64,000 nt of DNA, taken from positions 35,154,001 through 35,218,000 of the forward strand of contig NW_027266267.1 of assembly GCF_022045235.1 (NCBI RefSeq), given 5' to 3'. Shown here piece after piece: positions 652 to 54,576 of the stretch. Origin of the DNA: Haliotis cracherodii (Eukaryota). The notes under the pieces were generated by a model. That model was not told the origin of the DNA, searched no databases, and worked only from the letters and a program-made list of their open reading frames with translations. Every line of letters begins with the position of its first letter. Position 1 is the first letter of the stretch. Made by a program: the position numbers and the translations under genes.

Positions 652-3600
652 GTAACATAAAGTGGGTTTTCTGAGACCTCTGCACAACTGTCCGCATCGC
701 TGATAGCTGTGAACAGACATGACGACCAATACCTTTGTTCATTTATCATATTTCTGTTATTATTACTCTTGTGATATGTGTTGATGTATATTCAGATAAG
801 CTATTTTATTACAAGGAGGGATAAGGAAATGATTTGACAGATGAGAGCTGTATGTTATTACTTTTTATGAAACTGACATTTAATCTTTACATCTGAAATG
901 CTTTATAACGCTGTCACCAATGTTCCAGTTTCATCTTCAATCACTTAACATCAAATTAGAATCTGATACCAAATAATAGTAATATATTCTGACGGTCATC
1001 AAAGAGGTGTAGTTTACCTTCTGTGACGTTTCCCTTTCTTCTCGTCCTTACAACACATACACAGATAACGATTACAATGAGGATGAAGATTCCTCCACCT
1101 GTCCCAGCAGCGATATACATGGTGTCATCTGAAAGAGAAAAGAGATACTGGACAAGTAAGTATACTGTCCTTGAACTTGGCACATGGATAAGTCTATATA
1201 AGTCAAGTTATGAGTATAAGTACTGAATAATCTAAGACAACATATCTTTTACATAAAGAGAGTCCATGCTGTATACATACTCAGATAGAGATGGTGACGT
1301 CCGTCTATGAGGAGCAATGATACGAAGTTACTAGTATTTCATTGATAATGTTTCACCATATAATTTAGTTTGATTGGGAAGTTTTCGAAGCACAATAAAG
1401 ATCTAGCTACCAGGGGGCGGTTGGGTAGCTTAGTGGTTATAGTGTTCGCTCGTAACGCCGAAAACACGGGTTCGATTCCCGCCATCGGTACAATGTGTGA
1501 CAACGCGTAACCTGATAGATACGAGTAACCTTTCATACAGAACTGTACAAAACTAGGTTTTAGGCATACTAAGCAGAGATGGAGATTATATATGAGTACT
1601 ACATTCTTAAGTTTCTGTAAGAAAACCTATAATTGCAATCATGGCCAACTAACATTATAATTCAGCTGATCCAACTTTTCTTCAGTTACCCGATGAAGTT
1701 AATAAGCACGTCGTTAGCAATAGGTGTATGGTCCATGTTTTTTTCCGTGCCACTTATCGTGGCGTGACGACAATATTGCTTACTCTGTTATTCATAATCG
1801 TTCATTCATGTACAATGACAAAGCTAAGTCAATATACGAACTTTAATCAAATGCCGCACCGAAATAATGGGGTTGATCTATCACAATATCATGTGAAAAC
1901 TGTAATGTCTAGAGCTATCACAGTACTGTTTGTTTTAAATGCACATTCAGTGCACATTGTTGCTATGTCTTGCTATGTCCTGGGTCAGTATATGGTTTTG
2001 TTATATATTCATGAATGTTTCTAAATATCCTATATATCGTACCCAAAGGTTAGTATGACGACTAGTACACAACTACCTTGATTATCGTTACTCGGGGCGG
2101 TAGATATCTTGATAGTTGTAAGATTTGCCAATGTTGTCAGCTGTGAACTTGTTTTATAAGTAGCCCCGTTAAAGCCTGACGACATAAATAATATATACAA
2201 ATAATTATGAAATTGGCTCGCTCACCACAGAGGACATAAAATAACACACTTCTATGGTTTGAATAATCCGATAGACGAGCCATATCATGTTCAATTAATG
2301 TTTAGTGTGTTTAGGAACGCACGTTCGAACATTTTACATACAAAGTTACTAAATGTGTGGATAGCTGAAACATATATTAGGTTAATGACATACAGAGGAT
2401 TATTAAAACAGATAAAATGGCTTTCGCTGGCATCAGTGTGAATGACATCACTGGTATCAATACAATGTATCTCTAAATATATAATACATCGTTAGTTTAA
2501 CTGATACAAATCTACCATGAGTATCGCTGTCTGTGATGATCGTTGTTGCTGAATCAGTCAGTGGTGTAGTTGGCTTATCAGTAGTCCCAGGAATGACTGC
2601 ATACATAAATAATATATATTATTTATGACATTTACTAGCTTAATATCGATACACATGAACAAGCGATTTTATATTGACCGCCTCCATGGTGAACTGGTTA
2701 GAGCGTTTGTCCTGAGAGGGGAAGATCCGTGGCTTTGACACCAGGCCAGGTCATACGACAAGGCATAGTATTCTCCTTCGGGAAAAACACGGTTTGGTCT
2801 GTTCGGAGTTAGTCTACTGTTTCTGAATGGGGAATGCATTTAAACTGCGCCACGCTGTCTGAGGTATCACTATGAAACAGGCATGTGTCCTGACNNNNNN
2901 NNNNNNNNNNNNNNNNNNNNNNNNNNNNNNNNNNNNNNNNNNNNNNNNNNNNNNNNNNNNNNNNNNNNNNNNNNNNNNNNNNNNNNNNNNNNNNNNNNNN
3001 NNNNNNNNNNNNNNNNNNNNNNNNNNNNNNNNNNNNNNNNNNNNNNNNNNNNNNNNNNNNNNNNNNNNNNNNNNNNNNNNNNNNNNNNNNNNNNNNNNNN
3101 NNNNNNNNNNNNNNNNNNNNNNNNNNNNNNNCTATATAAGTGGAGAAATGATGGACGCGACGTAACAATTTCACCTCACTCTCCGATAGTGCTAATACCG
3201 TATGTATCTATTGGTGACCGATTTATACAGTTCTTAATTTGTAGATGGCGTGTTCATAGTTCTTAAACATGTACGTATGGTTCCCAGGTATATATTTCAT
3301 GAATCAGCTACATCTGCATCCGTTCTTGCACAATCTGTCATAACATGATGTTATGAGATCAGAAAGGACACGTTGATGTAATCAAAGGAGTATGAGCGCA
3401 TAACAAAAAAGATCATACCCAACGTAAGGTTGTCACTGACTCTATTGCATTGATCCTCACACCGCCACACTGCCCCAGCTTTGATGTATTGAGTTGTAGT
3501 TAGTGTCATGTTGTGCTGGTTGTCACCACAGCTTACAATGCCATCATTTGATGTGAATAGGTCGTAACGATATGCAGTATCATTATTGGGTGGGTTTCTG

Positions 3601-4095
3601 TTACAACCATGATCATGACCTACAAACACTGACGTGAGAACTCGCACCTCATCCATATACCAATATCTGAAGGACGTGTTGATAGTGGTGTTGATGGCAC
3701 TGCAGACTAAGGTGATATTACCTCCTGACTGGAACTGAGTGAGTTCCAGAGGGAGACCACCTGCAACATTCCAAGATACAACCAGCATGAGAAGCAATCA
3801 CAACACAAACATGCAGTGGCATTCTTCGTCGTCCTTCATGTACTTACAATACCAAAATAACTGTAACATGCAAACACGAAACAGATAGGATATAAAGTGG
3901 TACAATCACTATTAAATTACACTTACGACATCCTGATGGTTCCATCCTTCGGGTGATTAGGAATTCAAACCTACTGTTATTTGTGTACGAAAACCATCCT
4001 ATACACAGCATGATTAGAAATTCAAACCTACTGTTATTTGTGTACGTAAACCATCCTATACACAGCAGAGTAATCAGGCGAATCCTTGTGTCCAT
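652..4095 (-). CDS. Ig-like single-pass receptor, copy A (tail type II; 3' end runs off the window)
   Basis: GT/AG exons in phase: leader 4095-4032 (MDTRIRLITLLCIGWFTYTNN), Ig 3760-3419 (LVC..YWY..GC..SC..WRC), stalk1 2596-2516 (VIPGTTDKPTTPLTDS..), stalk2 2175-2077, TM 1128-1018 (IAAGTGGGIFILIVIVICVCVV-RTRRK), cytoplasmic 706-652 (AISDADSCAEVSENPLYV). Joined frame is open. Confidence 0.8.
1413..1500 (+). mobile_element. SINE family 1, 5' half
   Basis: A box TAGCTTAGTGG and B box GGTTCGATTCC; 3' part deleted relative to 19710-19878. Confidence 0.75.
2676..3180 (+). mobile_element. Old tRNA-derived SINE in the Ig-stalk1 intron, present in all six copies
   Basis: Degenerate tRNA-like head, CA-rich middle, ggacgcgacgtaac end; paralogs at ~9192, ~14308, ~21151, ~37142 and ~53723. 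Confidence 0.55.
2895..3131. other. Assembly gap
   Basis: N run. Confidence 0.99.
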
Positions 4096-6289
4096 GTTTC
4101 TCCTTAATCAAACTTCCTCTCGTCAATATTCGGTTGAAATAAGTTACTACACATGAAATACACACAGAGCAACATGCAGCATTCTTCGTGAACAAACATT
4201 AGAGCTCCGCTATCTGTGAAATACATCCTTATGAAGGAGGAAATATTCCTACAATCAGCATTCGCTCACCTGCAGCTGTTTGTCCTGGTTTAGGTACTGA
4301 TAAATACATACCTTTAGATATTTTACACAAAGTACAACTTGCATTACTGCCAGTTTGCGGTCGCGCACAGTTGTCGGTACATATACCAAAGGGATAATGT
4401 TTCATTGTCTATCCTGGCGTATTTGGATCATGTAATCACTTTGTTGGTGGGGGGTTTACATTCTTCGTGTGATGTTAATGAGAACATACTAGACACTGTC
4501 AATTCATGAATACGTTTTAAGCTGTTTCTCTTTGCAGCATATCCGGGCCACGTAGATGTTAATTTTCATTTTGCCGAGGCTTTGCATAAGCGTTGTTATA
4601 AGAATAGAGGTTTTTTTTCTGAGCACCTGAAAGATAAACAATCATTTGGGATGTTCACATTGAAATAACCACGTGTGTGATAATCATATTCCATGCTAGC
4701 ATGCAAGCATCCAAATTGTCTGCCCCGGATTAAACATGCACGTCCAAACTGTGAATCACGACCTTAAAGTCAAGGATGTCTCCATGCATATGCACTGTAA
4801 GATGTATTATTAGTTTTTTTTAAATTCAATACTTTTCTTTTTATTAAAATTTATTAACCACAGTTATATATGCATATTTCCTTATCTAGAATAGTCATAC
4901 AATATCATTGTCCCCGTCGTAAGTGCGCTGAGTCATTTTGCACCAATTTTCCAGGTCTGCACCTTGTGTTGTAATCAAAAATGCATCTTACCAAAAAACT
5001 GTCCCATTGTCGATACTCGCTTACACATTCTGGTGGGTAGGAGTTACATAAACACAATATAAATATAACTTTAATGTGTGTTTTTTTTCAGGTCGTAGTA
5101 TATATCATGTTGTGGTGAAAGTAGTAATCTAGTTGTATTATACTGCAATGCTTGATGGAACATGCATGAGACACGAATTAATTGAAAACAAAGCCAGTAA
5201 TCTGTCAGCCTATCAAGCCTTTATTTCTACAGGAAGAGGACAATAAACATTGAATAGATACTCAAATAAAGCCGAACGAGTACCTCACACAATGTAATAG
5301 ATAATGTGAATTCAGGACATTCAACTATTGAGTTTCAGTCATTCACGCTTTCCTGTTAGAGATTCAGTGAACATGATATTTACACAACATATTACGTGGA
5401 TACCCTTTGCGTAACTAATGATTCCAAAGGGACAAGTAACAGATATATTTGAAGTGACACAAACACGAAATATACATTACAGATGCTAGTAATCCCCAGC
5501 TAAAATAATCACATATGCATGCTATATACAGGTCCTAACAACTGTTCAGATGATAAGATGAAAATAGGTTATGACACAATTTAAAACGTCAACACCATGG
5601 AACTAGTGTCGAATATCTGCCGAAAGGCAAAATAATGATGACAACCGCATGAATGCATCACTGAAAATCAGTTGTGACACCAGGTTTTACGAAAAAGGGT
5701 AAGCTTGTCTTGTCTTTTACAGCGGTACCTCCTATGCACAATTTTCATAAAACATGGTGTTTGTTTTTGCAACACCCAGCAATAATCCTGCTATACGACG
5801 ATACATCAGTAGTGACAAAATGTTTTTATTATACCAATGGCGTAATGTCATTATGATAATAGCTTAACATATTGGCCGAAAATGACACAAACACTGGAGG
5901 ATGTATATATATTTGCTGGTCTGACAACTTGAAACAGTGGTTTTCACACTACTATGTTCTCATTGGTGGATTTTCGTAGTCAGCATTCTCGGTCACAGTG
6001 TTGTAGTAAACATCGTTGGCATTTATGCTGGACTGTCTGGAGGCTTCCTTCTTGATCTCGGAGTAACAGGGATCTGTATTGCCATCGTGAGCCAAAGTGT
6101 CGTATTGAGGTGCGTCAACCTCAGCCAGTGATACATCTGTACAAACACAGATACAAATAAGGAGTGTTGTAGACACGAGTCATGTTTTACGTTACACACT
6201 GACACAAGATGCTTCACAACAGTTTATTTGTGATACAAAGCTCCACAGCATTAATATTGTTTATTATTTGTATGGAGATGATCTGTCAT

Positions 6290-7015
6290 AACCAGCTGTC
6301 AGCCAATGTTTGGCTGCCCTACTTGAGGTCAGTATGTTAATTGAGGATGAAATCTCCCGAATCAAAGAATCAGTAACATCAACTTTTGACTTGGCTGTAA
6401 AACCTGAAGACATATCCATTCCTCTTTCTTATTGTCACAGAAAATATTTGAGACAAATGGAATTATTACCATGTAGATTCTCCAAAAAATAAATGATTTG
6501 CTTGACTTTGTTACAAACTCTGAAAAGAACCAACTTCAATTATGTCAAAACATTTGACTTTTCAACTTTGTACACCACAATACCATATGGGAAACTTGAA
6601 GGAAAACTTAATGCCTTGAATCATGGGGCTTGTTTAAAAACATGGTGACCATATATAGCGTTACTTATTTATCATCAGATCTAGAGGTTCAGGTCAGTTT
6701 GTCAAACATGGAAGCAAATGCCCAAAAAAGGGATGACTTCAACTTTGCAGTGCTCAACGTTCACTTTGTTTAGAACAGTGTTCCATCAGCAAGAGCCCTT
6801 GGTGTTTTTCATTTCACAACTTTTGAGGTATTGTGCTCTTTCTACCAAGATCTCAAAGAGCGTCACACAACTCTTGCTCCGAAACTGATTGATCAGGATC
6901 ACAGCATTTAAGGCACCAGTAAAGCTTTCACAAAGATTGATTGTAGACATGTGGTGGAGATGTGGAATCACTATATGTCGACAGTATTTTGACACATGTA
7001 TTAAAATCCATTCTT
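6290..7015 (+). mobile_element. Penelope-like RT fragment, internally deleted
   Basis: VKTFDFSTLYTTIP and RDDFNF segments; paralog of 17600-18855. Confidence 0.6.
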
Positions 7016-7133
7016 TAAATCAGTAACGGCAAACGGTACAAGTACGACCTACAAATCACATGATATTAAATCAGTTTCTGAATACAAATAATTGTAAAAT
7101 ATTGCTACCCTCCTTACAAGAGGTGTAGATTAC

Positions 7134-7241
7134 CTTGCTTGACTTTTCAATTTCGTCTCCTGTAAACACCTACACAGATAACGATTACGATGAGGATCAT
7201 GATGCCAAACCCTGTCCCAGCAGCGATGTACATGGTGTCAT
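7134..7241 (-). other. Duplicate TM exon (TM2) of copy B with early stop
   Basis: DDTMYIAAGTGFGIMILIVIVICVGVYRRRN*; AAG acceptor and GT donor retained. Confidence 0.7.
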
Positions 7242-10200
7242 CTTGAACATGAAACTTATACTGGGCTACTGGGTGTCTGGTCCATGCTTAATGGTGTTGA
7301 TCTTTTAAAACTATAATGTGAAAAGCGGATTATCTAGAAATATAGCCTGAATGCTTTATAACGCTGTCATGAATGTTCTGGTTTGATCTTCAAATCACTT
7401 AATATCAAATTAGAATCTGATACCAAATAGTTCAAATTTGTTCTGACCGTCATCAAAGAGGTGTAGTTTACCTTGCTTGACGTTTCCCTTTCTTCTCGTC
7501 CTTACAACACATACACAGATAACGATTATAATGAGGATGAAGATTCCTCCACCTGTCCCAGCAGCAATATCTTGAAGAGAATAGAAATACTGGACTAGTA
7601 AGTATACTGTCCTTGAACTTGGCACATGGATAAGTCTATATAAGTACATTTATGTGTTCGTATATATAAGCAATGAGTATAAGTGCTGAATGATATAAGA
7701 CAACATAACTTTTACATAAAGAGAGTCCATGCTGTATACACGCAGATAGAGTTGGTGACCTCGATCTATGAGGAGCAATGATACGAAGTTACTAGTATTT
7801 ACTTGTTTCACAACATAATTTAGTTTGATTGGGACGTTTTTGAAAGGGAAATGTGATATATATAAAGCACAGTAAAGTTCTAGTTCCCAGGCACAATATA
7901 GTAAAATTAGAATAAGTGGAGTAAGATTAAACACAGTTTGAATTGGCTAACTCTTTCAACTCGTACCACGTATGAGTCTCATGAGGCCATAACTGAATAA
8001 CGAACATGAAGTTATGTAACGCGTAACCGGAGAGATACGAGTAACCTTTTATGCAGGACTGTACACAACTAGGTTTTAGGTATACAAGGCAGAGATGGAG
8101 ATTATATATGAGTACTACATTCTTAAGTTTCTGAATATCAGTAACCTTTAATTGCCGTCATGGCCAAATGACATTAGAATTCAGCTGATCCAACTTTTCT
8201 TCGGGTATCCGATGATGTTAATAAGCACGTCGTTAGTAATGGGTGTATGGTCCATGTTTTTTTCCATGCCGCTTATCGTGGCGTGACGACAATATTGCTT
8301 ACTCTGTTATTTATAATAGTTCATTCGTTTACAATGACAAAGCTAAGTCAATATAAGAAGTTTAATAAAATGCCGCACCGAAATAATGGGGTTGATCTAT
8401 CACAATAGCATGTGAAAACCGTAATGTCTAGAGAGCTATCACAGTACTGTCTGTTCAAATGCCACTCAGTGCACATTGTTGGTATGTCTTGGATCCTGGG
8501 TCAGTATATGGTTTTGTTATATATTCATGAATGTTTCTAAATATCCTATATATCGTACCCAAAGGTTAGTATGACGACTAGTACACAACTACCTTGATTA
8601 TCGTTACTCGGGGCAGTAGATATCTTGATAGTTGTAAGATTTGCCAATGTTGTCAGCTGTGAACTTGTTTTATAAGTAGCCCCGTTAAAGCCTGACGACA
8701 TAAATAATATATACAAATAATTATGAAATTGGCTCGCTCACCACAGAGGACATAAAATAACACACTTCTATGGTTTGAATAATCCGATAGACGAGCCATA
8801 TCATGTTCAATTAATGTTTAGTGTGTCTAGGAACGCACGTTCGAACATTTTACATACAAAGTTACTAAATGTGTGGATAGCTGATACATATATTAGTTCA
8901 AATAAATGCATTGAATTATTAAAACAGATAAAATGGCTTTCGCCGGCATAAGTGTAAATGACACAACTTGTATCCATACAATGTTTCTCTAAATATATAA
9001 TACATCGTTAGTTTAACTGATACAAATCTACCATGAGTATTGCTGTCTGTGGGGATCGTTGTTGCTGAATCAGTCAGTGATGTAGTTGACTTATCAGTAG
9101 TCCCTGGAATGGCTGCATACATAAATAATATATATTATTTGTGACATTTATTAGCTTAATATCGATACACATTAACAAACGATTTCATATTGACCGCCTC
9201 CATGGTCAACTGGTTAGAGCGTTTGTCCAGAGATGGGAAGATCCGTGGGTTTGACACCAGGTCAGGTCATACGAAAAGTCGTAGTTTTCACCCTGTCCGG
9301 TATCAAGGGGAAAACACGTGGTGTTGTCTGTTTGGAGTAAGTCTACTGTGTCTGAATGAGGCATGCATGTTAAACTGCGCCACGGTATCTGAGTGGGCAG
9401 ACACTATGAAACGGGAATTGTATACGGAATAATACAAGCAACCACACACAAACACACACGCACTCAATCACTACACACATACACACACAAACACGTGCAT
9501 GTACGTCGCTATATAAGGCGAGTAATCATGGACGCGACGTAACAAATTTCACCTCTCTTCCGATAGTGTTAACACCGGTTGTATCTCTGGGTGACCGTTT
9601 TATAAAGTGCCTCATCTGTAGATGTCGTGTTCATAGTTCTTGAACATTTACGTATGGTTCTCAGGTATATATTTCATGAATCAGTTACATCTGCATTCGT
9701 TCTGGCACAATATGTCATAGCATGATGTATGGGATCAGAAAGGACACGTTGATGTAAATAAAGGAGTATGAGCGCATGACAAAAAGATCATACCCAACGT
9801 AATGTTGTTACTGACTCTATTGCGTTCATCCTCACACCGCCACACAGTCCCAGCTTTGATGTATTGAGTTGTAGTTAGTGTCATGTTGTGCTGGTGGTCA
9901 CCACAGCTTACACCGACATCATTTGATGTGAATAGGTCGTAACGATATGCAGAAGTATCGTCTGTACCATTGGGTGGGTTTCTGGTACAACCAGTAACTG
10001 CAAACACTGACGTGAGAACTCGCACCTCATCTAAATACCAATATGTGAAGGAACTGGTTTTTTTCCAGGTCGGAGTATATATCATGTTGTGGTGAAAGTA
10101 GTAATCTAGTTGTATTATACTGCAATGCTTAATGGAACATGCACGAGACACGAATTAATTGAAAACAAAGCCAGTAATCTGTCAGCCTATCAAGCCTTTA

Positions 10201-10984: not shown

Positions 10985-13900
10985 CTATGTTCTCATTGGT
11001 GGATTTTCGTAGTCAGCATTCTCGGTCACAGTGTTGTAGTAAACATCGTTTGCATTTATGCTGGACTGTCTGGAGGCTTCCTTCTTGATCTCGGAGTAAC
11101 AGGGATCTGTACTGCCATCGTTAGCCAAAGTGTCGTATTGAGGTGCGTCAACCTCAGCCAGTGATACATCTGTACAAACACAGATATAAATAAGGAGTGT
11201 TGTAGACACGAGTCATGTTTTACGTTACACACTGACACAAGATGCTTCACAACAGTTTATTTGTGATACAAAGCTCCTCAGCATTAATATTGTTTATTAT
11301 TTGTATGGAGATGATCTGTCATAACCAACTGTCAGCCAATGATTGGCTGCCCTACTTGAGGTCAGTATGTTAATTGAGGATGAAATCTCTCGCATCAAAG
11401 AATCAGTAACATCAACTTTTGACTTGGCTGTAAAACCTGAAGACATATCCATTTCTCTTTCTTATTTTCACAGAAAATATTTGAGACAAATAGAATTATT
11501 ACCATGTAGATTCTCCAAAAAATAAATGATTTGCTTGACTTTGTTAGAAACTCTGAAAAGAACCAACTTCAATTATGTCAAAACATTTGACTTTTCAACT
11601 TTGTACACCACAATACCATATGGGAAACTTGAAGGAAAACTTAATGCCTTGAATCATGGGGCTTGTTTAAAAACATGGTGACCATATATAGCGTTACTTA
11701 TTTATCATCAGAGGTTCAGGTCAATTTGTCAAACATGGAAGCAAATGCCCAAAATAGGGATGACTTCAACTTTGCAGTGCTCAACGTTCACTTTGTGTGG
11801 AGCAGTGTTCTATCAGCAAGAGCCCTTGGTGTCTTCATTTCACAATTTTTGAGGTATTGTGCTCTTTCTACCAAGATCTCAAAGAGCGTCACACAACTCT
11901 TGCTCCGAAGCTGATTGATCAGGATCACAGCATTTAAGGCACCAGTAAAGCTTTCACAAAGATTGATTGTAGACATGTGGTGGAGATGTGGAATCACTAT
12001 ATGTTGACAGTATTTTGACACATGTATTAAAATCCATTCTTTAAATCAGTAACGGTAAACGGTACAAGTACAACCTACAAATCACATGATATTAAATCAG
12101 TTTCTGAATACAAATAATTGTAAAATATTGCTACCCTCCTTACAAGAGATGTAGATTACCTTGCTTGACTTTTCAATTTCGTCTCCTCTAAACACCTAAA
12201 CTGGTGACCCCCGCCGTGATATTGCTGGAATATTGCTAAAAGCGGCGTAAAACCATACTCACTCACTCACTCACTCACTAAACACCTAAACAGATAACGA
12301 TTACGATGAGGATCATGATGCCAAACCCTGTCCCAGCAGCGATGTACATGGTGTCATCTTGAACATGAAACTTATACTGGGCTAGTGGGTGTCTGGTCCA
12401 TGCTTAATGGTGTTGATCTTTTAAAACTATAATGTGAAAAGCGGATTATCTAGAAATATAGCCTGAATGCTTTATAACGCTGTCATGAATGTTCTGGTTT
12501 GATCTTCAAATCACTTAATATCAAATTAGAATCTGATACCAAATAGTTCAAATTTGTTCTGACCGTCATCAAAGAGGTGTAGTTTACCTTGCTTGACGTT
12601 TCCCTTTCTTCTCGTCCTTACAACACATACACAGATAACGATTATAATGAGGATGAAGATTCCTCCACCTGTCCCAGCAGCAATATCTTGAAGAGAATAG
12701 AAATACTGGACTAGTAAGTATACTGTCCTTGAACTTGGCACATGGATAAGTCTATATAAGTACATTTATGTGTTCGTATATATAAGCAATGAGTATAAGT
12801 GCTGAATGATATAAGACAACATAACTTTTACATAAAGAGAGTCCATGCTGTATACACGCAGATAGAGTTGGTGACCTCGATCTATGAGGAGCAATGATAC
12901 GAAGTTACTAGTATTTACTTGTTTCACAACATAATTTAGTTTGATTGGGACGTTTTTGAAAGGGAAATGTGATATATATAAAGCACAGTAAAGTTCTAGT
13001 TCCCAGGCACAATATAGTAAAATTAGAATAAGTGGAGTAAGATTAAACACAGTTTGAATTGGCTAACGCTTTCAACTCGTACCACGTATGAGTCTCATGA
13101 GGCCATAACTGAATAACGAACATGAAGTTATGTAACGCGTAACCTGATAGATACGAGTAACCTTTTATGCAGGACTGTACAAAACTAGGTTTTAGGCATA
13201 CAAGGCAGAGATGGAGATTATATATGAGTACTACATTCTTAAGTTTCTGAATATCAGTAACCTTTAATTGCCAGCATGGCCAAATAACATTAGAATTCAG
13301 CTGATCCAACTTTTCTTCGGGTATCCGATGATGTTAATAAGCACGTCGTTAGTAATGGGTGTATGGTCCATGTTTTTTTCCGTGCCGCTTATCGTGGCGT
13401 GACGACAATATTGCTTACTCTGTTATTTATAATAGTTCATTCGTTTACAATGACAAAGCTAAGTCAATATAAGAAGTTTAATAAAATGCCGCACCGAAAT
13501 AATGGGGTTGATCTATCACAATAGCATGTGAAAACCGTAATGTCTAGAGAGCTATCACAGTACTGTCTGTTCAAATGCCACTCAGTGCACATTGTTGGTA
13601 TGTCTTGGATCCTGGGTCAGTATATGGTTTTGTTATATATTCATGAATGTTTCTAAATATCCTATATATCGTACCCAAAGGTTAGTATGACGACTAGTAC
13701 ACAACTACCTTGATTATCGTTACTCGGGGCGGTAGATATCTTGATAGTTGTAAGATTTGCCAATGTTGTCAGCTGTGAACTTGTTTTATAAGTAGCCCCG
13801 TTAAAGCCTGACGACATAAATAATATATACAAATAATTATGAAATTGGCTCGCTCACCACAGAGGACATAAAATAACACACTTCTATAGTTTGAATAATC

Positions 13901-15525
13901 CGATAGACGAGCCATATCATGTTCAATTAATGTTTAGTGTGTTTAGAAACGCACGTTCGAACATTTTACATACAAAGTTACTAAATGTGTGGATAGCTGA
14001 TTCATATATTAGGTCAAATAAATGCATTGAATTATTAAAACAGATAAAATGGCTTTCGCCGGCATTAGTGTAAATGACACAACTTGTATCCATACAATGT
14101 TTCTCTAAATATATAACATATCGTTAGTTTAACTGATACAAATCTACCATGAGTATTGCTGTCTGTGGGGATTGTTGTTGCTGAATCAGTCAGTGATGTA
14201 GTTGACTTATCAGTAGTCCCTGGAATGGCTGCATACATAAATAATATATATTATTTGTGACATTTATTAGCTTAATATTGATACACATTAACAAACGATT
14301 TTATATTGACCGCCTCCATGGTCAACTGGTTAGAGCGTTTGTCCAGAGATGGGAAGATCCGTGGGTTTGACACCAGGTCAGGTCATACGAAAAGTCGAAG
14401 TTTTCACCCTGTCCGGTATCAAGGGGAAAACACGTGGTGTTGTCTGTTGGGAGTAAGTCTACTGTGTCTGAATGAGGCATGCATGTTAAACTGCGCCACG
14501 GTATCTGAGTGGGCAGACTCTATGAAACGGGAATTGTATACGGAATAATACAAGCAACCACACACAAACACACACGCACTCAATCACTACACACATACAC
14601 ACACAAACACGTGCATGTACGTCGCTATATAAGGCGAGTAATCATGGACGCGACGTAACAAATTTCACCTCTCTTCCGATAGTGTTAACACCGGTTGTAT
14701 CTCTGGGTGACCGTTTTATAAAGTGCCTCATCTGTAGATGTCGTGTTCATAGTTCTTGAACATTTACGTATGGTTCTCAGGTATATATTTCATGAATCAG
14801 TTACATCTGCATTCGTTCTGGCACAATATGTCATAGCATGATGTATGGGATCAGAAAGGACACGTTGATGTAAATAAAGGAGTATGAGCGCATGACAAAA
14901 AGATCATACCCAACGTAATGTTGTTACTGACTCTATAGCGTTCATCCTCACACCGCCACACAGTCCCAGCTTTGATGTATTGAGTTGTAGTTAGTGTCAT
15001 GTTGTGCTGGTGGTCACCACAGCTTACACCGACATCATTTGATGTGAATAGGTCGTAACGATATGCAGAAGTATCGTCTGTACTATTGGGTGGGTTTCTG
15101 GTACAACCAGTAACTGCAAACACTGACGTGAGAACTCGCACCTCATCTAAATACCAATATGTGAAGGAACTGTTGGTGGTGGTGTTGATGGAGCTGCAGA
15201 CTAAGGTGACATTGTCGCCTGACTGGAACTGAGTGAGTTGTAGAGGGAGACCACCTGAAACATTCCAAGGTACAACCAGCATGAGAAGAAATCAGAACAC
15301 AAACATGCAGTGACATTCTCTGTCGTCCTCCATGTACTTACAATACCCAAATAGCTTTAACAAGCAAACATGAAACAGATTGGGTGCTACAGTCACTATT
15401 GAATTACACCTACGACATGTCATTGGCTCTACCCTTCGCGTGATTAGAAATTCAAACTTACTGTTATTTGTGTACGCAATCCATCCTATACACAGCAGAG
15501 TAATCAGGCGAATCCTGGTGCCCAT
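10985..15525 (-). CDS. Ig-like single-pass receptor, copy C, complete (~290 aa; tail type I)
   Basis: Leader 15525-15462, Ig 15254-14910, stalk1 14228-14148, stalk2 13807-13709, TM 12686-12588 (AAG acceptor), tail 11169-10985. Total 873 nt, all introns phase 1, no internal stop seen. Confidence 0.85.
11325..12045 (+). mobile_element. Penelope-like RT fragment, internally deleted
   Basis: Near-identical to 6290-7015. Confidence 0.6.
12160..12357 (-). other. Duplicate TM exon (TM2) of copy C, SINE-interrupted
   Basis: Paralog of 7134-7241 plus a 90-bp insertion; reads ..ICLGV*. Confidence 0.65.
12201..12277 (+). mobile_element. 5'-truncated SINE family 1 with TSD
   Basis: (CACT)n tail; TSD CTAAACACCTAAA at 12188-12200 and 12278-12290. 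Confidence 0.85.
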
Positions 15526-23444: not shown

Positions 23445-23568
23445 GTTGATGTGTATAGGTCGTAACTATATGCATAACTATCGTTTGTGCTGTTGGGTGG
23501 GTTCTTTGCACAGATATTCCCTGCAGACACTGACGTGAGAAGTCGGAAGTCATCCAGGTACCAATGTG

Positions 23569-30537: not shown

Positions 30538-30538
30538 T

Positions 30539-46158: not shown

Positions 46159-46190
<32 letters not shown>

Positions 46191-48660
46191 TTATTGTATT
46201 CTGGCCATAGGCCCATATACATACAATAATATTATATATATACAATTTTGTAGATGTACAAGTATAAACATGCAGATTTATATGCACGGAGATGTGCACA
46301 TGCACAATTTTTTATGAAAAATAAATCGCATCACAACACAACAAGAAGAGATTAAAGCATTTGATTAATAAAGGCAAATAACCTCAAGAATAATTAAACA
46401 TCATTTGTACAAAGACGGTTGCAAAGTCGTAAACCATAATTAATGTATAGAATAGTATTCTTTTGTTGCTCGTTAGATTTTTCATCAAAACGGAGGAGCT
46501 TAATTAGTGTCTTAAATATGTCGCACGAAGACAACCAAATGTATTTTGTGACAAAAAGTAGAAGAAATGACATCTTTTGTAAAAATCGTGTATTTTGCCA
46601 AAACGACTTTGGCTATGAAGAGCGAAATGCATGTGCAAAAGTGCTGTATAAAACTGAGAATACGGTACGTTATGGAGACATCAACCAAAAGCACGTTTTA
46701 CATCTATACAGAGGGAGAGAGACGTTGGTTGGCGCAACAAGGAGCCACTCACGCCACCCACGCCACCATGTCGAACAAGTGCTGTGACAGTGATATTGTG
46801 AAACGTGTCATTGTTGACCACCATGTGTCTTTGTGTTTCAGTCGATCGTAAAGTGCTTGTTTGAATAACATGAGCAGTTATGCACAGGGTGTTAAAACTA
46901 AGCTCTCTCTCTCTATATATTGACTTTCTACATGCTTTTTTTTATTTCAAAGTCTTTCAAAATCTTGTTATACTTTCTTTTGGGCATTAATTGAAATAAC
47001 ACATCTTCTTACATACTTAATAACGGCTGCTGAAAGTGGTTGATATTGATTGAGTTATATTTACCAACAATGTGTAATTAATTATGTTGGGGGCACGGGT
47101 GGCCCAGTCGTCTATGGCGCCGCAATTCGCTGTGCAGAGTTTTAGTCCCTTGGGCGAGCCAGAAACCAAAGTGGTAAACGTCTAAGGCATGCCCCACTTC
47201 GAGATTTTCTCCCACATTAAGCTGACATGTCGTGATATAACTGGAATACTGTTAAAAGCGGTGTAAAACCCAACTCACTCACTCACTCACTAATTAATTA
47301 TATACTAGTATTACATCCTGTTATAAACAGAGACGGGACTAAGATTCTATGTACCATCTATAATATTAACCCTAACTTTCACTCAGTAATAACCAATGTC
47401 TTGAGTGTAAGAATTACAGCTTTCGAGCTACAATGGCAGATAAAATTTATCAGTGATGTCATTTGATTGTGACATCAGGGCAATGGTCTGCAAAGATTTT
47501 GAGGCAGGTGCGTTGAAGTGATGTTAGGTTTAGATGAAAATCCCAGCTTTACTGATGCATGTCATATATGTTTAGTGGAAACAATGACATAAATATATGT
47601 TGCAATTGAAATAAGTATAGATGCTAACAGAATTATATGATAATAACCTAAAACATATATGTGTCCATCAAAACAAATATTAAAGTTTGAACAATTTAAA
47701 ACCACATAAAACCACAGTGTTAAACTACTTAACACATACAGAGGAGAGTGTTAGTTTTCTCAGTTTAAGAAGCAATCTTACATATGAAAAAAGGTATCTC
47801 ATGACTTTCTCATATGTATGACACATATAAAACAGTTACACGATAGTATAAACATAACGGTTTTGAACAGCTCACGATGTGAGCTAACACCAGAGCGTTT
47901 ACTCTGGACTCAGTACTGATAATGCTTTTTTCTTCTTTAATGTGACATTTAACAGTAACAATAGTCCTAAAATATATGTACAGATGGGCAATTCCAAAGT
48001 AACTACATGATAATGTTGTTTTTCAAACTGTTCAAACAGTTCTCGTATTGACCATATTTCAGGCATGGATTGCTTACATCTGCATATCGTCATTGTATTT
48101 GTCATGGCAATTGAAATCAGTCGACCGCGATGTAAATTATAGTGTATTTGTATTCCATTGTTTTAAAATCATTTTCATGAGACGGCTGTGTCAAAATCAA
48201 AACTGAACGTTTTCAGTATTTTCCTAACCGCCATCAGTCATTGAGGCCATGACAACCGATAGTATATCTGAATTACATTGTTGATCAGTACAGTACACTG
48301 CGGTTATGACGAACTCAAAGGGACCTCTAATTTTAGTTCGTTATAACCACATTTCGTTATAAGTATATATGCGGCAACTGGCTGGGGTCCAAAAGGAATA
48401 AGTTTTATCTGTTAGTTCGTTATTAATTAGCATGTTCGTTATAAAGGTAGTTTACTGTACATTTATATCAACTTACCCTATTTACATTGAAATAATGTTT
48501 AAGTTCAACGCAGACCTAATCACAGTAGAGAGAGCTGTACACAACAAGGAGAACACCCAGAGGAGCAGAGCCCCTTTTGAATTTGTCTGTCGAACACACA
48601 TGAGCGTTGTGTCGCCTAGAACATCGGCTGCACCGAATTAGCTGACGTCGCTTCCTCTAT

Positions 48661-51600
48661 TTAGACTTCACTATACTCATTGTCGGCTTCGGACCAAGTA
48701 CTATCTGCAACAACCAATGCGTTTATGTCATCCACACATATTTCATCCAAATATCAACGTTGTCTTTCTGTCATAAATCCCTCAAGGGATGTTACATTTT
48801 GTAGGTAAGTTGTTTTACGCCTCAGTTAAATATTCCTGATGACATCCTTTAAATAGTCGAGTCTGGAGTAGACAAACCGACGGTTACTGTTATGGTAAAT
48901 GTTCCACATCGTTGGGCAAAGATGACACACTATGTACCAAGTTTGTTTGTTTGCTGTTTACGGTTTAACCGCGAATATTACAGCTTTTTGATGGGGTCTG
49001 TAAATCATCGATTATGGACCAGACAACACAGTGACTGATATCATGAGCATCTAAAACATTCGGATCCAATGACATGCATCGACCAAGTCACCGATTCTAA
49101 CCACCCGATGCCGTTAGTTGACTAATCAACCACGTCACCGAGCCAGACCAACCGACCCATTTAGAGCCTCTTACGACAAACATGGATAAGGAGACATATT
49201 CTAACTCCTAGTCCGGTCAATCGCACTTCCGTGTATACTTACATGTTCCGTTCTTTGTTTTTTCATGGACATGTCCGGTACGGCATACAGATCACCAATG
49301 TTCACAGCACTGCCTACAGCTGACTGGTGTTTGGGTGTCGTGCCCGGGACGCCGTACTTGTCACCATCATTGACAGCACAACGTACAGCTAGCTTGTGTT
49401 TGGGTGTCTTGTCTGGTACGGCATACAGATCACCAACGTCGACAGCGCCGCCAAGAGCAGGTATGTGTTCGGGTGTATTGTCTGGTACGGCAGTTGAATA
49501 TAGAATTATGGTGTTCATATTTCAACAAGTCACACCATATTATTCTCCCTAGATATTCTTCCTGAAATTATTAAGCTTAATTTAGAAGGCAACACTCAAA
49601 CTATAATCACAATACAATAGTCAGATATGTGATGAAGTGAAGAACACCACAACAGAAAAGACTTACAAGTGAAGAGCACCTTGTTGTCAACAGGTTCAAC
49701 TTGGTATCTGAAAAGAAATATCATATTGTTTTTAAGTTATTGCTCGTTTCAAACCTGGGAAAAATTTGCAGGAATAAGATTCAACATTTTCATGAATGAT
49801 ATTATTTTTTTTTCACATTTGAGGCGTTACCATTGATCTGTCAACTTGTGTCATCGTATCCCAAAAGGTGATGGGCGTTACCCACATTATCATTGGTTGG
49901 TTGGTGTGTTGTTTAACGCCACACTAAGCAATATATGACAAAGCTATATGACGGCGGTCTGTAAATAATTCAGTATGGACCAGACAAGCCAGTGCTGAAT
50001 ATCATCAGCATCGATCCGATCAATTGGGATCGATGATATGCACCAACCAAGCGTGACGATCCGATCCCGCTAGTCGCCTCTTACGACAAGCATGGCCGCC
50101 TTTACGCAGCATCAAGATCTAATGTGTCTATTTATAGTCCATTGTCCTCCAACAACATGCAACCAACGATCACGCTTATTAATACAATACAAATTTGAAA
50201 ATATTTTAGAACTACCTGCGGATACAAAAATGTGCGTTTTTAAAAAAAAAGAGTTGCATTATCATTATAAAAGAACAATTGTGAAGAAAATATTTGAACG
50301 ATGAACTACCCGTGATAAGGGTTGATGATGCGACCGTCGTTGTGTGTGTTAATTACATTAATGAATACATTTAAATGAAGGCGACAAGGTCACCCACATC
50401 TATGGAGAGTTTTGTGATGATAACAATTAATTAACGTATTATGTACTACATAAATGCGACAAAACCCTTTCCATATCTCCGCGAAAAACACAGTCGATTG
50501 TTCGATTCGGACTATATCATGAGCATGTGTTTATGAATCACTATTAAATAGTGATGATACCAGGTGTTCGCCCCATCAGCGACACCCGTCAAAAACACAT
50601 GCAAACACAAGTCAAATAATCACATGAAAAAAACCTACAAGTCTGAATAGGGACTGGAGCCTCAATGTTCCCAACGTGTCTACAGTGAACCTTTTTAAAG
50701 CTTTTCTGAGGCCAGGAATGTTTCCTCGAATGTTGTAACCTTGATCAAACAGCTTCTTAGCAAGTAATGTATTACGCTCTTTTTGAAATATTGATTGAAA
50801 GTGCATGCTCGAATGTTCTTCAAAAGTTGTGAAATGTAGACAGCAATAGCTGTACCTACTGGAATACTGCTTGACATAAAGGGAAAGTTGACTGTTGGAA
50901 AGTTGACGTCATCCCACTTGTCATGCAGTCTAGTGCTTTATCCCTCTGAATCTTTGTGCATAGTTCTACATAAGAAACAGACGAAGCGGTTTCATTTGTC
51001 TTCTTTATTTCTAGTTCAGGTGGGTAAATCAGTCTATTTGGTGGTTATTGAACGATTTCCGATACCTATGACAACAATATACCTATGACGACTCATACGG
51101 GCATTGAGGTGAGGTGAGGTGAGGTGAGGTGAGGTGAGGTGAGGTGAGGTGAGGTGAGGTGAAATCGGGTTTAACGTCCAAGATTTTTGCACTTACATAG
51201 CCACGCTCTACCACTAGACCACGGAGGCGGTCCCGGGCATTGAGCGATGAAATTCAAAGGTGGTATACAGTGGAAATACTTGACACTCTACTCACGTAAC
51301 ATAAAGTGGGTTTTCTGAGACCTCTGCACCATTGTCTGCATCGCTGATAGCTGTAAACAGACATGACGACCAATACCTTTGTTCATTTATCATATTTCTG
51401 TTATTATTACTCTTGTGATATGTGCATGTATATTCAAATAAGCTATTTTATCACAAGGAGGGGTAAGGAAATGATTTGACGGATGAGAGCTGTATGTTAT
51501 TAATTTTTATGAAACTGGTAGTTAATCTGTACATCTGAAATGTTTTATAACGCTGTCATGAATGTTCCAGTTTGATCTTCAAATCACTTAACATCAAATT

Positions 51601-54576
51601 AGAATCTGATATCAAATAGTTCAAATTTGTTCTGACCGTCATCAAAGAGGTGTAGTTTACCTTGCGTGACGTTTCCCTTTCTTCTCGTCCTTACAACACA
51701 TACACAGATAACGATTATAATGAGGATGAAGATTCCTCCTCCTGTACCAGCAGCGATGTACATGGTGTCATCTGGAAGTGAAAACAAATACTGGGCTAGT
51801 AAGTATAGTGTCCTTGTTCTTGGCACATGGATAAGTCTATATAAGTCAATCTATGAGTTCGTATATATAAGCAATGAGTATAAGTACTGAATAATCTAAG
51901 ACAACATATCTTTTACATGAAGAGAGTCCATGCTGTATACACGCAGATAGAGATGGTGACGTCCGTCTATGAGAAGCAATGATACGAAGTTACTAGTATT
52001 TACTTGATAGTGTTTCACCATATAATTTATTTTGATTGGGAAGCATAGTAAAGATCTAGCTCCCAGGGGGGCGGTCGGGTAGCCTAGTGGTTAAAGTGTT
52101 CGCTCGTCACGCCGAAGACCCAGGTTCCATTCCCGACATGGGTACAATTTGTAAGCCCATTTCTGGTGTCCCCCGACGTAGTATTGCTGGAATATTGCTA
52201 AAAGTGTCGTAAAACCAAATTCACTCACTCACTCCAGCTCTCAGGCACACTATAGTAAAATTGGAAAAAGTGGAGTAAGATTAAACACAGTTGTAATTGG
52301 CTAGCGCTTTCAGCTCCTGCAAAGTATGAGTCTCATGAGGCCATAACTGAATAACGAACATGAAGTTGTGTAACGCGTAACCCGATAGATACTAGTAACA
52401 TTTTATGCAGAACTATACAAAACTAGGTTTTAGGCATTCTAAGCAGAGATGGAGATTATATATGAGTACTACATTCTTAAGTTTCTGAATATCAGTAACC
52501 TTAAATTGCCATCATGGCCAAAAAACATTAGAATTCAGCTGATCCAACTCTACTTCGGTTACTCGATGACGTTAATAAGCATGTCGTTAGTAATGGGTGT
52601 GTGGTCCATGTTTTTTTCCGTGCCACTTATCGTGGCGTGACGACAATATTGCTTACTCTGTTATTTATAATAGTTCATTCGTTTACAATGACAAAGCTAA
52701 GTCAATCTAAGAAGTTTAATAAAATGCCGCACCGAAATAATGGGGTTGATCTATCACAATATCATGTGAAAACCGCAATGTCTAGAGAGCTATCACAGTA
52801 CTGTCTGTTTTAAATGTACATTCAGTGCACATTGTTGCTATGTCTTGCTATGTCCAGGGTCAGTATATGGTTTTGTTACATATTCAGGGCAGTCGGGTAG
52901 CCTAGTGGTTAAAGCGTTCGCTCGTCACGCCGAAGACCCGGGTTCGATTCCCGACATGGGTATATTGTGTGAAGCCCATTTCTTGTGTCCCCCGCCGTAG
53001 TATTGCTGGAATATTGCTAAAAGCGGCGTAAAACCATACTCACTCACTGTTATATATTCATGAATGTTTCTAAATATCATATATATCGTACCCAAAGGTT
53101 AGTATGACGACTAGTACACAACTACCTTGATTATCGTTGCTCGGGGCAGAAGTTATCTTGACAGTTGTAAGATTTGCCAACGTTGTCAGCTGTGAACTTC
53201 TCTTATAAGTAGTCCCGTGAAAGCCAGATGACATAAATAATATATGCAGATAATTATGAAGTTTGCTCGCTCACCACAGAGAACATAAAATAACACACTT
53301 CTATAGTTTGAATAATCCGATAGACGAGCCACATCATGTTCAATTGATGTTTAGTGTGTTTAGGAACGCACGTTCGAACATTTTACATACAAAGTTACGA
53401 AATGTGTGGATAGCTGATACATATATTAGGTCAATAACATGCATAGAATCATTAAAACAGATAAAATGGCTGTCGCCGGCATTAGTGTGAATGACATATC
53501 TGGTATCAATACAACGTTTCTCTAAATATATAATACATCGTTAGTTTAACTGATACAAATCTACCATGAGTATCGCTGTCTGTGGTGATCGTTGTTGCTG
53601 AATCTGTCAGTGGTGTAGTTGACTTATCAGCTGTCCCAGGAATGACTGTATACATAAATAATAAACATTATTTGTGACATTTACTAGCTTAATATCGATA
53701 CACATGAACAAGCGATTTAAATTGACCGCCTCCATGGTCAACCGGTTAGAGCGTTTGTCCTGAGAGGGGAAGACACCAGGCCAGGTCAAACGACAAGGCA
53801 TAGTATTTTCCTTGGGGAAAAACACGGTTTTGTCTGTTCAGAGTTAGTCTACTGTTTCTGAATGGGGAATGCATTTAAACTGCGCCACGCTATCTGAGGT
53901 ATCACTATGAAATACAAGCAATACAAGCAGCAACACACACGCGCGCGCATGACAAAAAGATCATACCTAGCGTAAGGTTGTTACTGACTCTCAGGCGTTG
54001 ATCCTCACACCGCCACACAGTGCCAGCTTGGGTGTATTGAGTTGTAGTTAGTGTCATGTTGTGCTGGTGGTCACCACAACTTACACTGCCATCATTTGAT
54101 GTGAATAGGTCGTAACGATATGCTGTATCATTGGCTGTGTTATTGGGTGCGTTTCTGTTACAACCATGACCTCCAAACACTGACGTGAGAACTCGCACCT
54201 CATTCATATACCAATTTGTGAAAGACGTGTTGAGAGTGGTGTTGATGGGACTGCAGACTAAGGTGACATTATCGCCTGACTGGAACTGATTGAGCTGTAG
54301 AAGAAGACCACCTGTAACATTCCAAGATACAACCAGCATGAGAAGCAATCACAACACAAACATGCAGTGGCATTCTTCGTCGTTCTTCATGTACTTACAA
54401 TACCCAAATAACTGTATGAAAAAGATAGGATATAAAGTCCTACAATCACTATTAAAATACACCTATGACATCCAAATGGTTCTATCCTTCACGATTAGAA
54501 ATTTAAACCTACTGTTATTTGTGTACGCAATCCTTCCTATACACAGTAGTGGAATCAGGTGAATCCTGGAGTCCAT
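48661..54576 (-). CDS. Ig-like receptor copy G (tail type II; stalk2 acceptor mutated)
   Basis: Leader 54576-54513, Ig 54311-53967, stalk1 53645-53565, stalk2 53224-53126 (acceptor TG), TM 51771-51661, NPLY exon 51350-51296, 41-nt exon 49707-49667. Candidate YAVP exon 49481-49243 and terminal segment 48704-48661; distal splicing is uncertain. Confidence 0.72.
50660..51105 (-). mobile_element. Penelope-like RT C-terminal fragment
   Basis: Paralog of 1-405 (MSSSIPVGTAIAVYISQLLKNIRAC). Confidence 0.6.
52066..52234 (+). mobile_element. SINE family 1
   Basis: A and B boxes, (CACT)n tail. Confidence 0.85.
52887..53047 (+). mobile_element. SINE family 1, specific to copy G
   Basis: TSD TGTTA(C/T)ATATTCA; empty in the paralogous introns. 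Confidence 0.88.

Follow-up and report, generated by a model that had tools for sequence, protein, structure and literature searches.

Known Receptor Clusters and the Abalone Array

CD300 receptors have a single V domain plus a stalk. CD300A and CD300C are described as clustered paired receptors of the Ig superfamily, whose ectodomains are kept alike by gene conversion and whose tails differ, with many pseudogenes (PMC12447643). In Hydractinia, the positively selected, specificity-changing sites of Alr2 lie on the C/C' strand side of its V-set domain (PMC8282982). Alr1–Alr38 combine several Ig domains (V-set and I-set) with an Fn3-like fold and are devoid of the Cys-Trp-Cys pin (PMC9546547). 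Among gastropods, PTC2 and GRC of Biomphalaria glabrata form clusters of single-pass membrane proteins that have diverged strongly (PMC7494358). The non-syntenic Chr4 of Haliotis gigantea is enriched in Ig domains, the genes named being NCAM-like and bearing PF13895 (PMC12627906).

The stretch analysed here (the window) comprises 64,000 nt of Haliotis cracherodii (GCF_022045235.1, NW_027266267.1, positions 35,154,001–35,218,000, forward), and all positions below are window-based. Its minus strand carries a tandem array of predicted single-pass receptor genes, each with a signal sequence, one V-type Ig domain, a Ser/Thr stalk, a transmembrane (TM) segment, and a tail with tyrosine motifs that is of either of two types. 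Compared by features and not by homology, the array resembles CD300 in its similar ectodomains, differing tails, gene conversion, and pseudogenes, but each abalone tail bears its own tyrosine motifs and the abalone TM segment is uncharged. Like the Alr genes, it is an invertebrate cluster of single-pass receptors with V-type Ig domains and tails of ITAM/ITIM pattern, in which pseudogenes, gene conversion, and a variable C/C' side occur; however, the abalone gene has one Ig exon with the pin followed by a Ser/Thr stalk, which is not the Alr architecture. The likeness to PTC2/GRC, again of features and not of homology, lies in the gastropod clusters of divergent single-pass membrane proteins, whereas the snail clusters are allelic haplotype polymorphisms linked to schistosome resistance, with synonymous divergence exceeding nonsynonymous (PMC7494358). 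The family has at least 80 genomic matches, and 72 of 80 lie on one contig, which recalls the H. gigantea chromosome rich in duplicated Ig-domain genes; the domain there is PF13895, whereas the present one falls below all Pfam cut-offs, and the supplementary tables of that paper may include some of these genes. No description of this family was found in the literature searched, which consisted mostly of papers outside subscription. Since diversifying single-Ig receptor clusters are familiar from vertebrates and Hydractinia, the pattern belongs to a known kind.

Gene Copies, Tails, and Transcripts

The features of the array are listed in Table 1. Open reading is possible for genes A, C, D, F, and G, while B is 5'-truncated and E is broken. 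The remaining type-2 tail exons of copy A lie just beyond the window edge, and its 380 aa product equals the RefSeq model P0006; it carries two substitutions, R>C and N>D, where the sequence is invariant elsewhere. Copy B, 99.0% identical to C over 7163–10056, is devoid of the signal exon, the Ig splice acceptor, and the first 27 Ig codons, including Cys1. An 8-nt deletion in the second stalk exon of D leaves this gene open (261 aa) only if the exon is skipped; the second stalk exon of G has TG as its acceptor, and skipping it gives an open gene of 327 aa. Copy F has no first tail exon, and its TM exon contains an additional base; the two changes together keep the frame open (338 aa). The last exon is in a shifted frame in both F and G. 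Copy E is split by two repeat insertions, and the broken Ig exons at 23126..24078 are of the H/I/J type. Further copies, H, I, and J, were observed beyond the window, the signal exon of J being degraded. Neither stops nor frameshifts were detected in the Ig exons of A, C, D, F, G, H, I, and J, in which all four Cys are retained. The Ig domains are 75–82% identical to that of copy C. A Pfam scan of eight other window ORFs gave nothing above the cut-off.

Table 1. Positions of receptor genes, Ig exons, and variable segments in the window.
Feature	Position	Strand	Description
Copy A gene	652..4095	-	Exons: signal 4032-4095, stalk 2516-2596 and 2077-2175, TM 1018-1128, first tail 652-706
Copy A Ig exon	3419..3760	-	6-nt insertion, 9-nt deletion, extra Cys via R>C at FG hairpin
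Copy B, 5'-truncated duplicate	5952..10056	-	Stalk, TM, and type-1 tail exons present
Copy B Ig exon	9794-10056	-	
Copy C, complete six-exon gene	10985..15525	-	290 aa, every intron GT-AG, type-1 tail
Copy C Ig exon	14910-15254	-	
Variable segment 3 (C numbering)	14929..14949	-	Residues 102-108: FG hairpin
Variable segment 2 (C numbering)	15067..15117	-	Residues 46-62: end of C', C'C'' turn, C'', C''-D loop
Variable segment 1 (C numbering)	15157..15195	-	Residues 20-32: end of strand B, BC loop, start of C
Copy D	17268..22322	-	Type-1 tail
Copy D Ig exon	21757-22101	-	
Broken Ig exons	23126..24078	-	Stop-containing fragment 23886-24078 and copy E 23126-23809
Copy F	33264..38384	-	Type-2 tail
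Copy F type-2 tail exon	33850..34088	-	69-bp repeats encoding YAVP/YGVP motifs
Copy F Ig exon	37762-38106	-	
Two broken Ig fragments, upstream of F	38767..39214	-	
Copy G	48657..54576	-	Type-2 tail
Copy G Ig exon	53967-54311	-	
Two broken Ig fragments, upstream of G	54964..55407	-	

The type-1 tail exon was found in B, C, D, I, and J, and the type-2 exon in A, F, G, and H. In copy C, the type-1 tail contains YDTL-x9-YSEI, VYYNTV, and YENP, comprising an ITAM-spaced pair and a match to the ITIM pattern. Such a spaced pair arose by chance in 0.26% of 10,000 tail shuffles, and of the 36 relatives examined, 31 bear a TM segment and only 3 of these show the ITAM pattern. The type-2 tail carries YxxP repeats, with the ITIM-pattern SEYSEI in A and absent from F and G. 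No charged residue is present in the TM segment. Similar ectodomains are thus found on differing tails within one cluster with gene conversion; the A-type ectodomain has a type-2 tail in the window and a type-1 tail in a H. rufescens model.

The RefSeq entries XP_071095265/266/268 and H. rufescens XP_048254008, all annotated as 'uncharacterized protein', cover A, C, F, and a close relative of A. In XP_071095268, the F ectodomain is fused to the TM segment and tail of D, though F has its own tail exons. The scheme suggested by this model, several 5' units splicing onto one shared tail, was dropped as unnecessary, though not disproved. Two contigs from a single run, guessed to be RNA, contain a spliced Ig-to-stalk junction. 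Three guessed-RNA runs (one study, sparse cover) gave no copy-to-copy joints among those listed, and a search of recorded data sets for copy C listed no RNA source.

Predicted Fold of the Ig Domain

The AlphaFold2 model of the Ig domain (pLDDT 85) contains strands A, B, C, C', C'', D, E, and F. The top matches in a structure search with this model were VH, TCR V, and CD8 alpha (Z 9.2–10.7; best Z 10.7, rmsd 2.8, 97 aligned). The V-set hallmarks given in PMC9546547 are the Cys23-Trp41-Cys104 pin, Gly16, and a hydrophobic residue at 89, and all of these are found in the abalone domain. C19, W33, C101, and L87 are present in every full copy, and G12 in all except H; family-wide, C19 is kept in 75/80 matches, W33 in 80/80, and C101 in 75/80. 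The Arg75-Asp98 salt bridge and the Tyr102 corner are absent from the window copies, which have D/N73, A95, and W99, and at these columns the family has R73 in 67/80, D at the aligned column in 10/80, and W99 in 79/80. With V-type strands and the pin present but the salt bridge and Tyr corner missing, the domain is predicted to have a V-type fold with a non-canonical V-set sequence, the strand assignment likewise being that of the model. A second disulfide, Cys50-Cys78, is likely. All five domains scanned stayed under the Pfam V-set/Ig cut-offs (best Ig_3, E = 0.041), the sequence search of solved structures gave weak matches only (best E 0.063), and atlas V-set clusters at 0.88–0.89 serve as a lead only.

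Distribution of Variable Sites

The initial annotation described almost invariant framework blocks and substitutions clustered in three CDR-like loops. The blocks themselves hold: TLVCS is invariant in the five copies having it, and AYRYDLFTSN, HNMTLTTTQY, and VWRCED are invariant in 6/6; nevertheless, 24 of 77 columns outside the variable segments vary (dN/dS 0.68), so 'almost invariant' does not extend to the framework as a whole. The motifs at Cys2 (VGHDHGC, AVTGC, AGYGC, VGHRC, and GGHGC) were found as first noted. Indels, described there as following PPN, are confined to copy A, which has a 9-nt deletion after PPN and a 6-nt insertion before Cys2. The FG site reads N, N, Y, I, F, and L in A, B, C, D, F, and G and R in E, but the last is not a further A–G state, because E is of the H/I/J type, whose FG site is K, K, and R.

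Hypervariable columns were defined as those with at least three amino acids among A, C, D, F, and G, and 11 of the 15 fall inside the three segments (39/116 columns, p = 0.0009), the segments having been picked after seeing the data. These are residues 21, 26, 28, and 32 in segment 1, residues 46, 48, 57, 59, 61, and 62 in segment 2, and residue 106 alone (14935-14937) in segment 3. The same bias recurs in H, I, and J outside the window, with 16/39 variable columns in the segments versus 15/77 elsewhere (p = 0.013), and in 24 other paralog pairs (segment pN 0.109 vs 0.054), which were drawn, at no more than 20% nucleotide distance, from 72 exons, none of these exons being dropped. Over the 261 Ig nucleotides shared by B and C, exactly two substitutions separate them, at 9821/14937 and 9968/15084, and each is nonsynonymous, in agreement with the earlier count; this rate (2/261) is not above that of the remainder of the duplicate (26/2633), and both differences fall on sites hypervariable among A, D, F, and G alone (chance 0.7%).

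As judged from the topology of the predicted model, the variation lies on an outward surface of a V-type domain, but 'three CDR-like loops' is too narrow a description. The BC, C'C'', and FG tips (16 columns) hold only 4 of the 15 hypervariable sites (p = 0.13), the remainder being spread over strands C and D, the final parts of B and C', the C''-D loop, DE, and EF. In the predicted topology, the residues following PPN form the C''-D loop and not a CDR2 equivalent; this loop is the most variable element in the other pairs (pN 0.161). Across the same 24 pairs, pN was 107/998 (0.107) in distal and 35/776 (0.044) in proximal loops, a 2.4-fold difference (p = 7e-7) at equal pS (23/277 vs 20.5/226). 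A hand-picked set of 'outward face' residues (dN/dS 5.5) was rejected as evidence, as it was chosen knowing the variable sites. The clustering is real, and the predicted outer loops and edge carry most of the copy-to-copy differences. On the modeled topology, the contrast between membrane-distal and proximal loops is the best support for a putative binding surface.

Tests for Selection

The recombination screen revealed a mosaic Ig exon (PHI-like p = 0.001). Codon models were custom-written (GY94-type, F3x4/F1x4, six beta classes, and naive empirical Bayes), and the values may deviate slightly from those of PAML. The diversifying selection first proposed for the loops was significant in plain site models, with M8a/M8 likelihood ratio tests (LRT) of 11.3 for five copies and 21.2 for eight, but significance was lost with codon rate variation. 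A separate tree per exon segment gave 6.3–8.3 (five copies) and 10.6–17.1 (eight), and gamma codon rates in both models gave 3.1–3.7 (p 0.16–0.21) in all four set-ups. For the other pairs (n = 22, the 24 minus two identical ones), the LRT on 2 df was 5.55 with gamma rates versus 38.3 without. For five copies, M1a plus gamma matched the fit of M2a (lnL -948.9 vs -949.2). The eight-copy LRT was reached in 0/60 mosaic-tree null simulations and in 2/60 with codon rate variation added; the five-copy LRT was reached in 4/53 and 8/53, respectively. The real frame (11.3) exceeded all 10 controls, comprising eight intron pseudo-codon sets (2.1–7.0) and two shifted frames (3.0 and 4.4).

Between the segments and the rest of A, C, D, F, and G, dN was 0.52 versus 0.22 and dS 0.21 versus 0.33. 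Outside the segments, dN/dS was 0.49–0.68. Segment dN/dS was near 1 in eight copies (1.05), and in the other pairs segment pN was 0.109 versus a pS of 0.116, the latter being higher inside than outside (0.116 vs 0.082). The 15 A–G hypervariable sites showed a pN of 0.082 versus a pS of 0.115 in those pairs. Over the whole Ig exon dN/dS was 1.1, and its divergence (0.10–0.13) was intron-like (introns 0.05–0.16). Tri-allelic sites were more frequent at codon positions 1-2 (9/228) than in introns (16/1491, p = 0.003), an excess that was gone in comparison with intron 1 alone (4/128, p = 0.47). The hottest 42-nt windows contained 17 changes in the exon and at most 18 in introns. Residues 63–72 and 83–92 had no nucleotide changes at all, synonymous ones included. 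The evidence for selection, rather than loose constraint, as the driver of the differences is suggestive. The array is a clear case in which standard M7/M8 tests overstate selection under gene conversion.

Interpretation

We favor, at a probability of roughly 0.55, an array of single-V-Ig surface receptors whose differences concentrate at the distal loops and the C'/C'' edge, a surface that would bind a variable ligand, with a handful of codons under mild diversifying selection. The exon anatomy, the two tail types, the clustering, the mosaic ancestry of the exons, and the conservation of the Cys/Trp core are direct observations. Copies would arise via unequal crossing-over and be partly homogenised by gene conversion; purifying selection would hold the Ig core, while the outer surface would be free to vary, with change favored at perhaps 10-25% of codons. 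Ligand binding would signal via phosphorylated tyrosines, in type-1 tails by the ITAM-spaced pair and in type-2 tails by repeated YxxP. The most likely candidate ligand is a microbial or non-self cell surface.

A possible but less probable account needs no positive selection: constraint on the outer loops would simply be absent, and codons would look hypervariable through uneven mutation rates together with patchy gene conversion. It agrees with the equal fits of M1a plus gamma and M2a for five copies, the recombination within the exon, the two blocks free of any change, the family-wide segment dN/dS near 1 with pS raised as well, and the inflated LRTs of the intron controls. Relaxed loops alone, however, leave the distal/proximal gap at equal pS unexplained, although proximal loops may be structurally tighter; moreover, segment dS is not elevated in A–G, few null simulations reach the eight-copy LRT, and with few synonymous sites codon-level gamma rates would be hard to tell from selection. 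Decay of most copies into pseudogenes, with a dN/dS near 1 reflecting lost function, is highly improbable. The truncation of B, the breakage of E and of five other fragments, the stalk-exon damage in both D and G, the shifted last exons of F and G, the two substitutions in A, the degraded signal exon of J, and the whole-exon dN/dS fit such decay; against it stand the eight intact Ig exons with four Cys each, 78 of 80 family matches free of stops, the lower dN/dS outside the segments, and the spliced contigs from the guessed-RNA run.

Abalones are solitary animals, to which colony fusion does not apply, and this lowers the standing of homophilic receptors, by which each copy or allele would bind its like on other cells, giving a code for allorecognition or cell identity comparable to Hydractinia Alr2, with diversification creating new self-specificities. 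Sites 32, 46, and 48 do lie on or beside C and C' (DSSP of the model), comparable to the C/C' side of Alr2, and Alr genes are likewise clustered single-pass receptors with ITAM/ITIM tails (PMC9546547), but the architecture of one Ig domain plus stalk is unlike Alr, and the canonical Cys-Trp-Cys core is missing from Alr domain 1. We regard this explanation as quite unlikely. Somewhat less doubtful, though still unlikely, is a broader view of the locus as an undescribed abalone immune or self-recognition complex, with at least 80 V-type Ig receptors that escape Pfam and lie mostly on one chromosome, surfaces diversifying under selection, and ectodomains swapped between two signaling tails, which would make it the molluscan parallel to paired receptors or to the allorecognition complex of Hydractinia.

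Haliotis is a farmed, disease-prone genus. This large unnamed abalone family, with its tyrosine signaling tails and mapped variable surface, provides a useful candidate set for pathogen or non-self recognition.

Organization of the Ig Receptor Array

All motifs quoted in the initial annotation are on the minus strand. Comparing the window with itself revealed that the tandem duplication is nested, its units measuring ~5–7 kb and 16 kb, and the RefSeq models matching the copies are named Haliotis. The features are listed in the table. Three more copies (H, I, and J) and two distant ones were found beyond the window, within 41 kb. The degenerate second transmembrane (TM) exon of C is interrupted by a repeat insertion. 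Stalk exon 2 is 99–100% identical between A and C and the Ig exon ~10% different; judging from the sequence, this near-identity is a recent conversion tract.

Gene copies and other features (positions in the window)
Feature	Position	Product (aa)	Description
Copy A		380	open
Copy B			starts within the Ig exon, joined to C 3′-flank sequence; without signal exon and Cys1
Copy C		290	complete, six exons: signal, Ig, two Ser/Thr-rich stalk, TM, tail; GT-AG introns
Copy D		261	open if the damaged 99-nt stalk exon is skipped
Copy F		338	open
Copy G		327	open if the damaged 99-nt stalk exon is skipped
Copy E and five other fragments			broken
Copy F, tail changes	33850–35372		55-nt first tail exon lost; one base gained at the TM exon end
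Extra degenerate TM exons (B, C, D; one each)	7124–7245, 12150–12361, 18955–19082		with stop
Stalk exon 2, A versus C	13700–13925 versus 2067–2290
70-bp tandem arrays	28066–28638, 43680–44250, 59799–60501		8–10 copies; in every long duplication unit (n = 3)
RefSeq model P0001	17268–38384		F signal, Ig, and stalk exons linked to D TM and tail over 17 kb
Match to sequencing runs X1 and X2	3423–3744		two contigs with Ig variants absent from A–J

Distribution of Variable Sites and Predicted Fold

On re-reading of the copies, the motifs, the residues at the FG site, and the two differences between B and C reported initially were all correct, and the reported indels were present in A but absent from all other copies. 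Among A, C, D, F, and G, 45 of 116 columns were variable: 21 of 39 in the three segments proposed to be CDR-like (domain residues 20–32, 46–62, and 102–108) and 24 of 77 elsewhere. The proposed clustering held for the segments, which contained 11 of the 15 hypervariable columns (at least three residues among these copies), but not for the CDR-equivalent tips, with 4 of 15 (p = 0.13). Since the segment borders had been picked post hoc, after the data were seen, the bias was re-tested outside A–G. It recurred in H, I, and J (p = 0.013) and in 24 paralog pairs drawn without overlap from other clusters (pN 0.109 inside versus 0.054 outside the segments, p = 1e-13). Two invariant blocks were also free of synonymous change, which suggests homogenisation besides constraint.

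The AlphaFold2 model (58-row alignment, pLDDT 85) has predicted strands A (4–11), B (14–21), C (30–35), C′ (38–46), C″ (49–53), D (74–78), E (82–87), and F (98–103), with a helix at 64–70. Its closest structural matches were VH, VHH, TCR V, and CD8 alpha domains. In it, the usual core consists of Cys19, Trp33, and Cys101; a second disulfide, Cys50–Cys78, is likely (Cys50 in 54 and Cys78 in 59 of 80 family matches). On the model, the hypervariable sites map to 21, 26, and 28 (B end, BC), 32 (C), 46 and 48 (C′ end, turn), 57–62 (C″-D loop), 75 (D), 81 (DE), 93–94 (EF), and 106 (FG). In the 24 other pairs, pN and pS were 0.107 and 0.083 in the distal loops (BC, C′C″, DE, and FG) versus 0.044 and 0.091 in the proximal loops (AB, CC′, and EF), an assignment that follows standard V-domain topology. 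Strand C″ (pN 0.112) and the C″-D loop (pN 0.161, pS 0.173) were also fast.

Tests for Positive Selection

The whole Ig exon had a dN/dS of 1.1 and diverged no faster than its own introns. The diversifying selection inferred initially was favoured by plain site models, which preferred a class with dN/dS ~3–4 (likelihood-ratio statistic, LRT, of 11.3 with five copies, 21.2 with eight, and 3.9 with H, I, and J), but significance was lost when codon rate variation was fitted in both models (LRT 3.1–3.7); it was likewise not significant in 22 other pairs (5.55 on 2 df). The recombination screen recommended initially identified the Ig exon as a mosaic (PHI-like p = 0.001) with patches of near-identity between A and C. 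One tree per segment lowered the LRT to 6.3–8.3 (five copies) and 10.6–17.1 (eight), and intron pseudo-codon controls gave values up to 7.0. The observed LRT was matched by 4/53 (five copies) and 0/60 (eight) mosaic nulls, and by 8/53 and 2/60, respectively, with codon rate variation added. A tree-free count of tri-allelic sites (9/228 versus 16/1491) favoured selection; the excess was not upheld against intron 1 alone. Each of the four eight-copy fits gave posteriors of at least 0.97 at domain residues 32 and 106 (columns 32 and 108 of the alignment), and of at least 0.93 at 48, 51, 62, and 81. The peak residues differ in other subfamilies (24, 39, 51, 54, 57, and 64).

The two B/C differences, offered as a sign of selection, are indeed both nonsynonymous and in the segments (chance 0.60 and 0.067, respectively), but are not creditable to selection on B because B is truncated. 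Both fall on positions that are hypervariable among A, D, F, and G (chance 0.007), a pattern compatible with selection on C as well as with codons prone to mutation.

Overall, the initial observation was confirmed in part and its interpretation partly supported. We favour, at a probability of about 0.55 for the reading as a whole, including the favoured codons, surface receptors with a variable-ligand surface and tyrosine-phosphorylation tails. The outer loops and C′/C″ edge would contact a variable ligand, and the tails would pass the signal on via tyrosine phosphorylation. Duplication and conversion would keep the frame alike among copies and purifying selection would maintain the core, the outer surface changing at a roughly neutral rate with a handful of codons probably favoured for change. 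The main rival, pure relaxation with patchy conversion, is a possible but weaker reading: the mosaic exon and the loss of significance under codon rate variation agree with it, and the rarity of matching eight-copy nulls speaks for favoured codons. Homophilic self-recognition is ranked as unlikely. Mass decay, to which the broken copies could be assigned, is ranked as highly improbable; of the 80 genomic matches to one distant member (a lower bound), 78 contain no stop. The contig of the window carries 72 of these matches.

Tail Types

The tail of copies B, C, D, I, and J is encoded by a single exon, which in C and D carries YDTL-x9-YSEI, VYYNTV, and YENP. YDTL-x9-YSEI fits the ITAM consensus as quoted in PMC9546547 and was seen in 0.26% of tail shuffles. 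The ITAM pattern was not family-wide, being found in 3 of 31 TM-bearing relatives (36 relatives examined). In A, F, G, and H, the tail spans several exons and includes 23-residue repeats with YAVP; NPLY is also present in the A and G tails, and the A tail ends in SEYSEI. YxxP and NPxY are binding motifs for SH2 and PTB domains. The exon loss and the extra base in F jointly preserve the tail frame, hinting at continued constraint on this copy. It has tail exons of its own, despite P0001 using those of D. The H. rufescens model P0003 combines an A-type ectodomain (GHDHGC insertion, 3-residue deletion; 92% identity) with the single-exon tail type of B, C, D, I, and J; A itself bears the multi-exon type. 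The mismatch is either a real tail swap or a mis-joined model.

Family Members and Comparison with Known Systems

All named best-scoring full-length relatives were from Haliotis (9 named among 10 looked up), and two close atlas clusters were mostly molluscan. In one run guessed to be RNA, two contigs run out of the Ig exon close to its 3′ boundary and into sequence that, on visual inspection, reads as the start of stalk exon 1; they show splicing at the family level, not for any given copy. The X1/X2 variants have new residues at 38, 41, 49, and 72–73, and of the 22 codon differences from A that were listed, 19 change the amino acid, at a depth of 3–5. A relative from H. asinina, P0007 (1612 aa, automatically named mucin-22-like), contains about nine near-identical tandem copies of the Ig domain of this family. 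Two pairs of family Ig exons (L079/L080 and L089/L090; C4 12.78–12.94 Mb) have identical nucleotides, reflecting either very recent duplication or assembly redundancy.

As far as the excerpted sources describe them, CD300A/C (PMC12447643) and Hydractinia Alr (PMC9546547, PMC8282982) are clustered, gene-converting Ig receptor families that the abalone array resembles in its working, and it is reminiscent of the snail PTC2/GRC clusters (PMC7494358); the comparison is one of resemblance and not a claim of membership in any of them. Enrichment of duplicated Ig genes on one abalone chromosome has already been published (PMC12627906), and the mollusc entries in the excerpted invertebrate IgSF review are FREPs, MDM, and oyster IgIT, the abalone family being absent there (PMC11999971).
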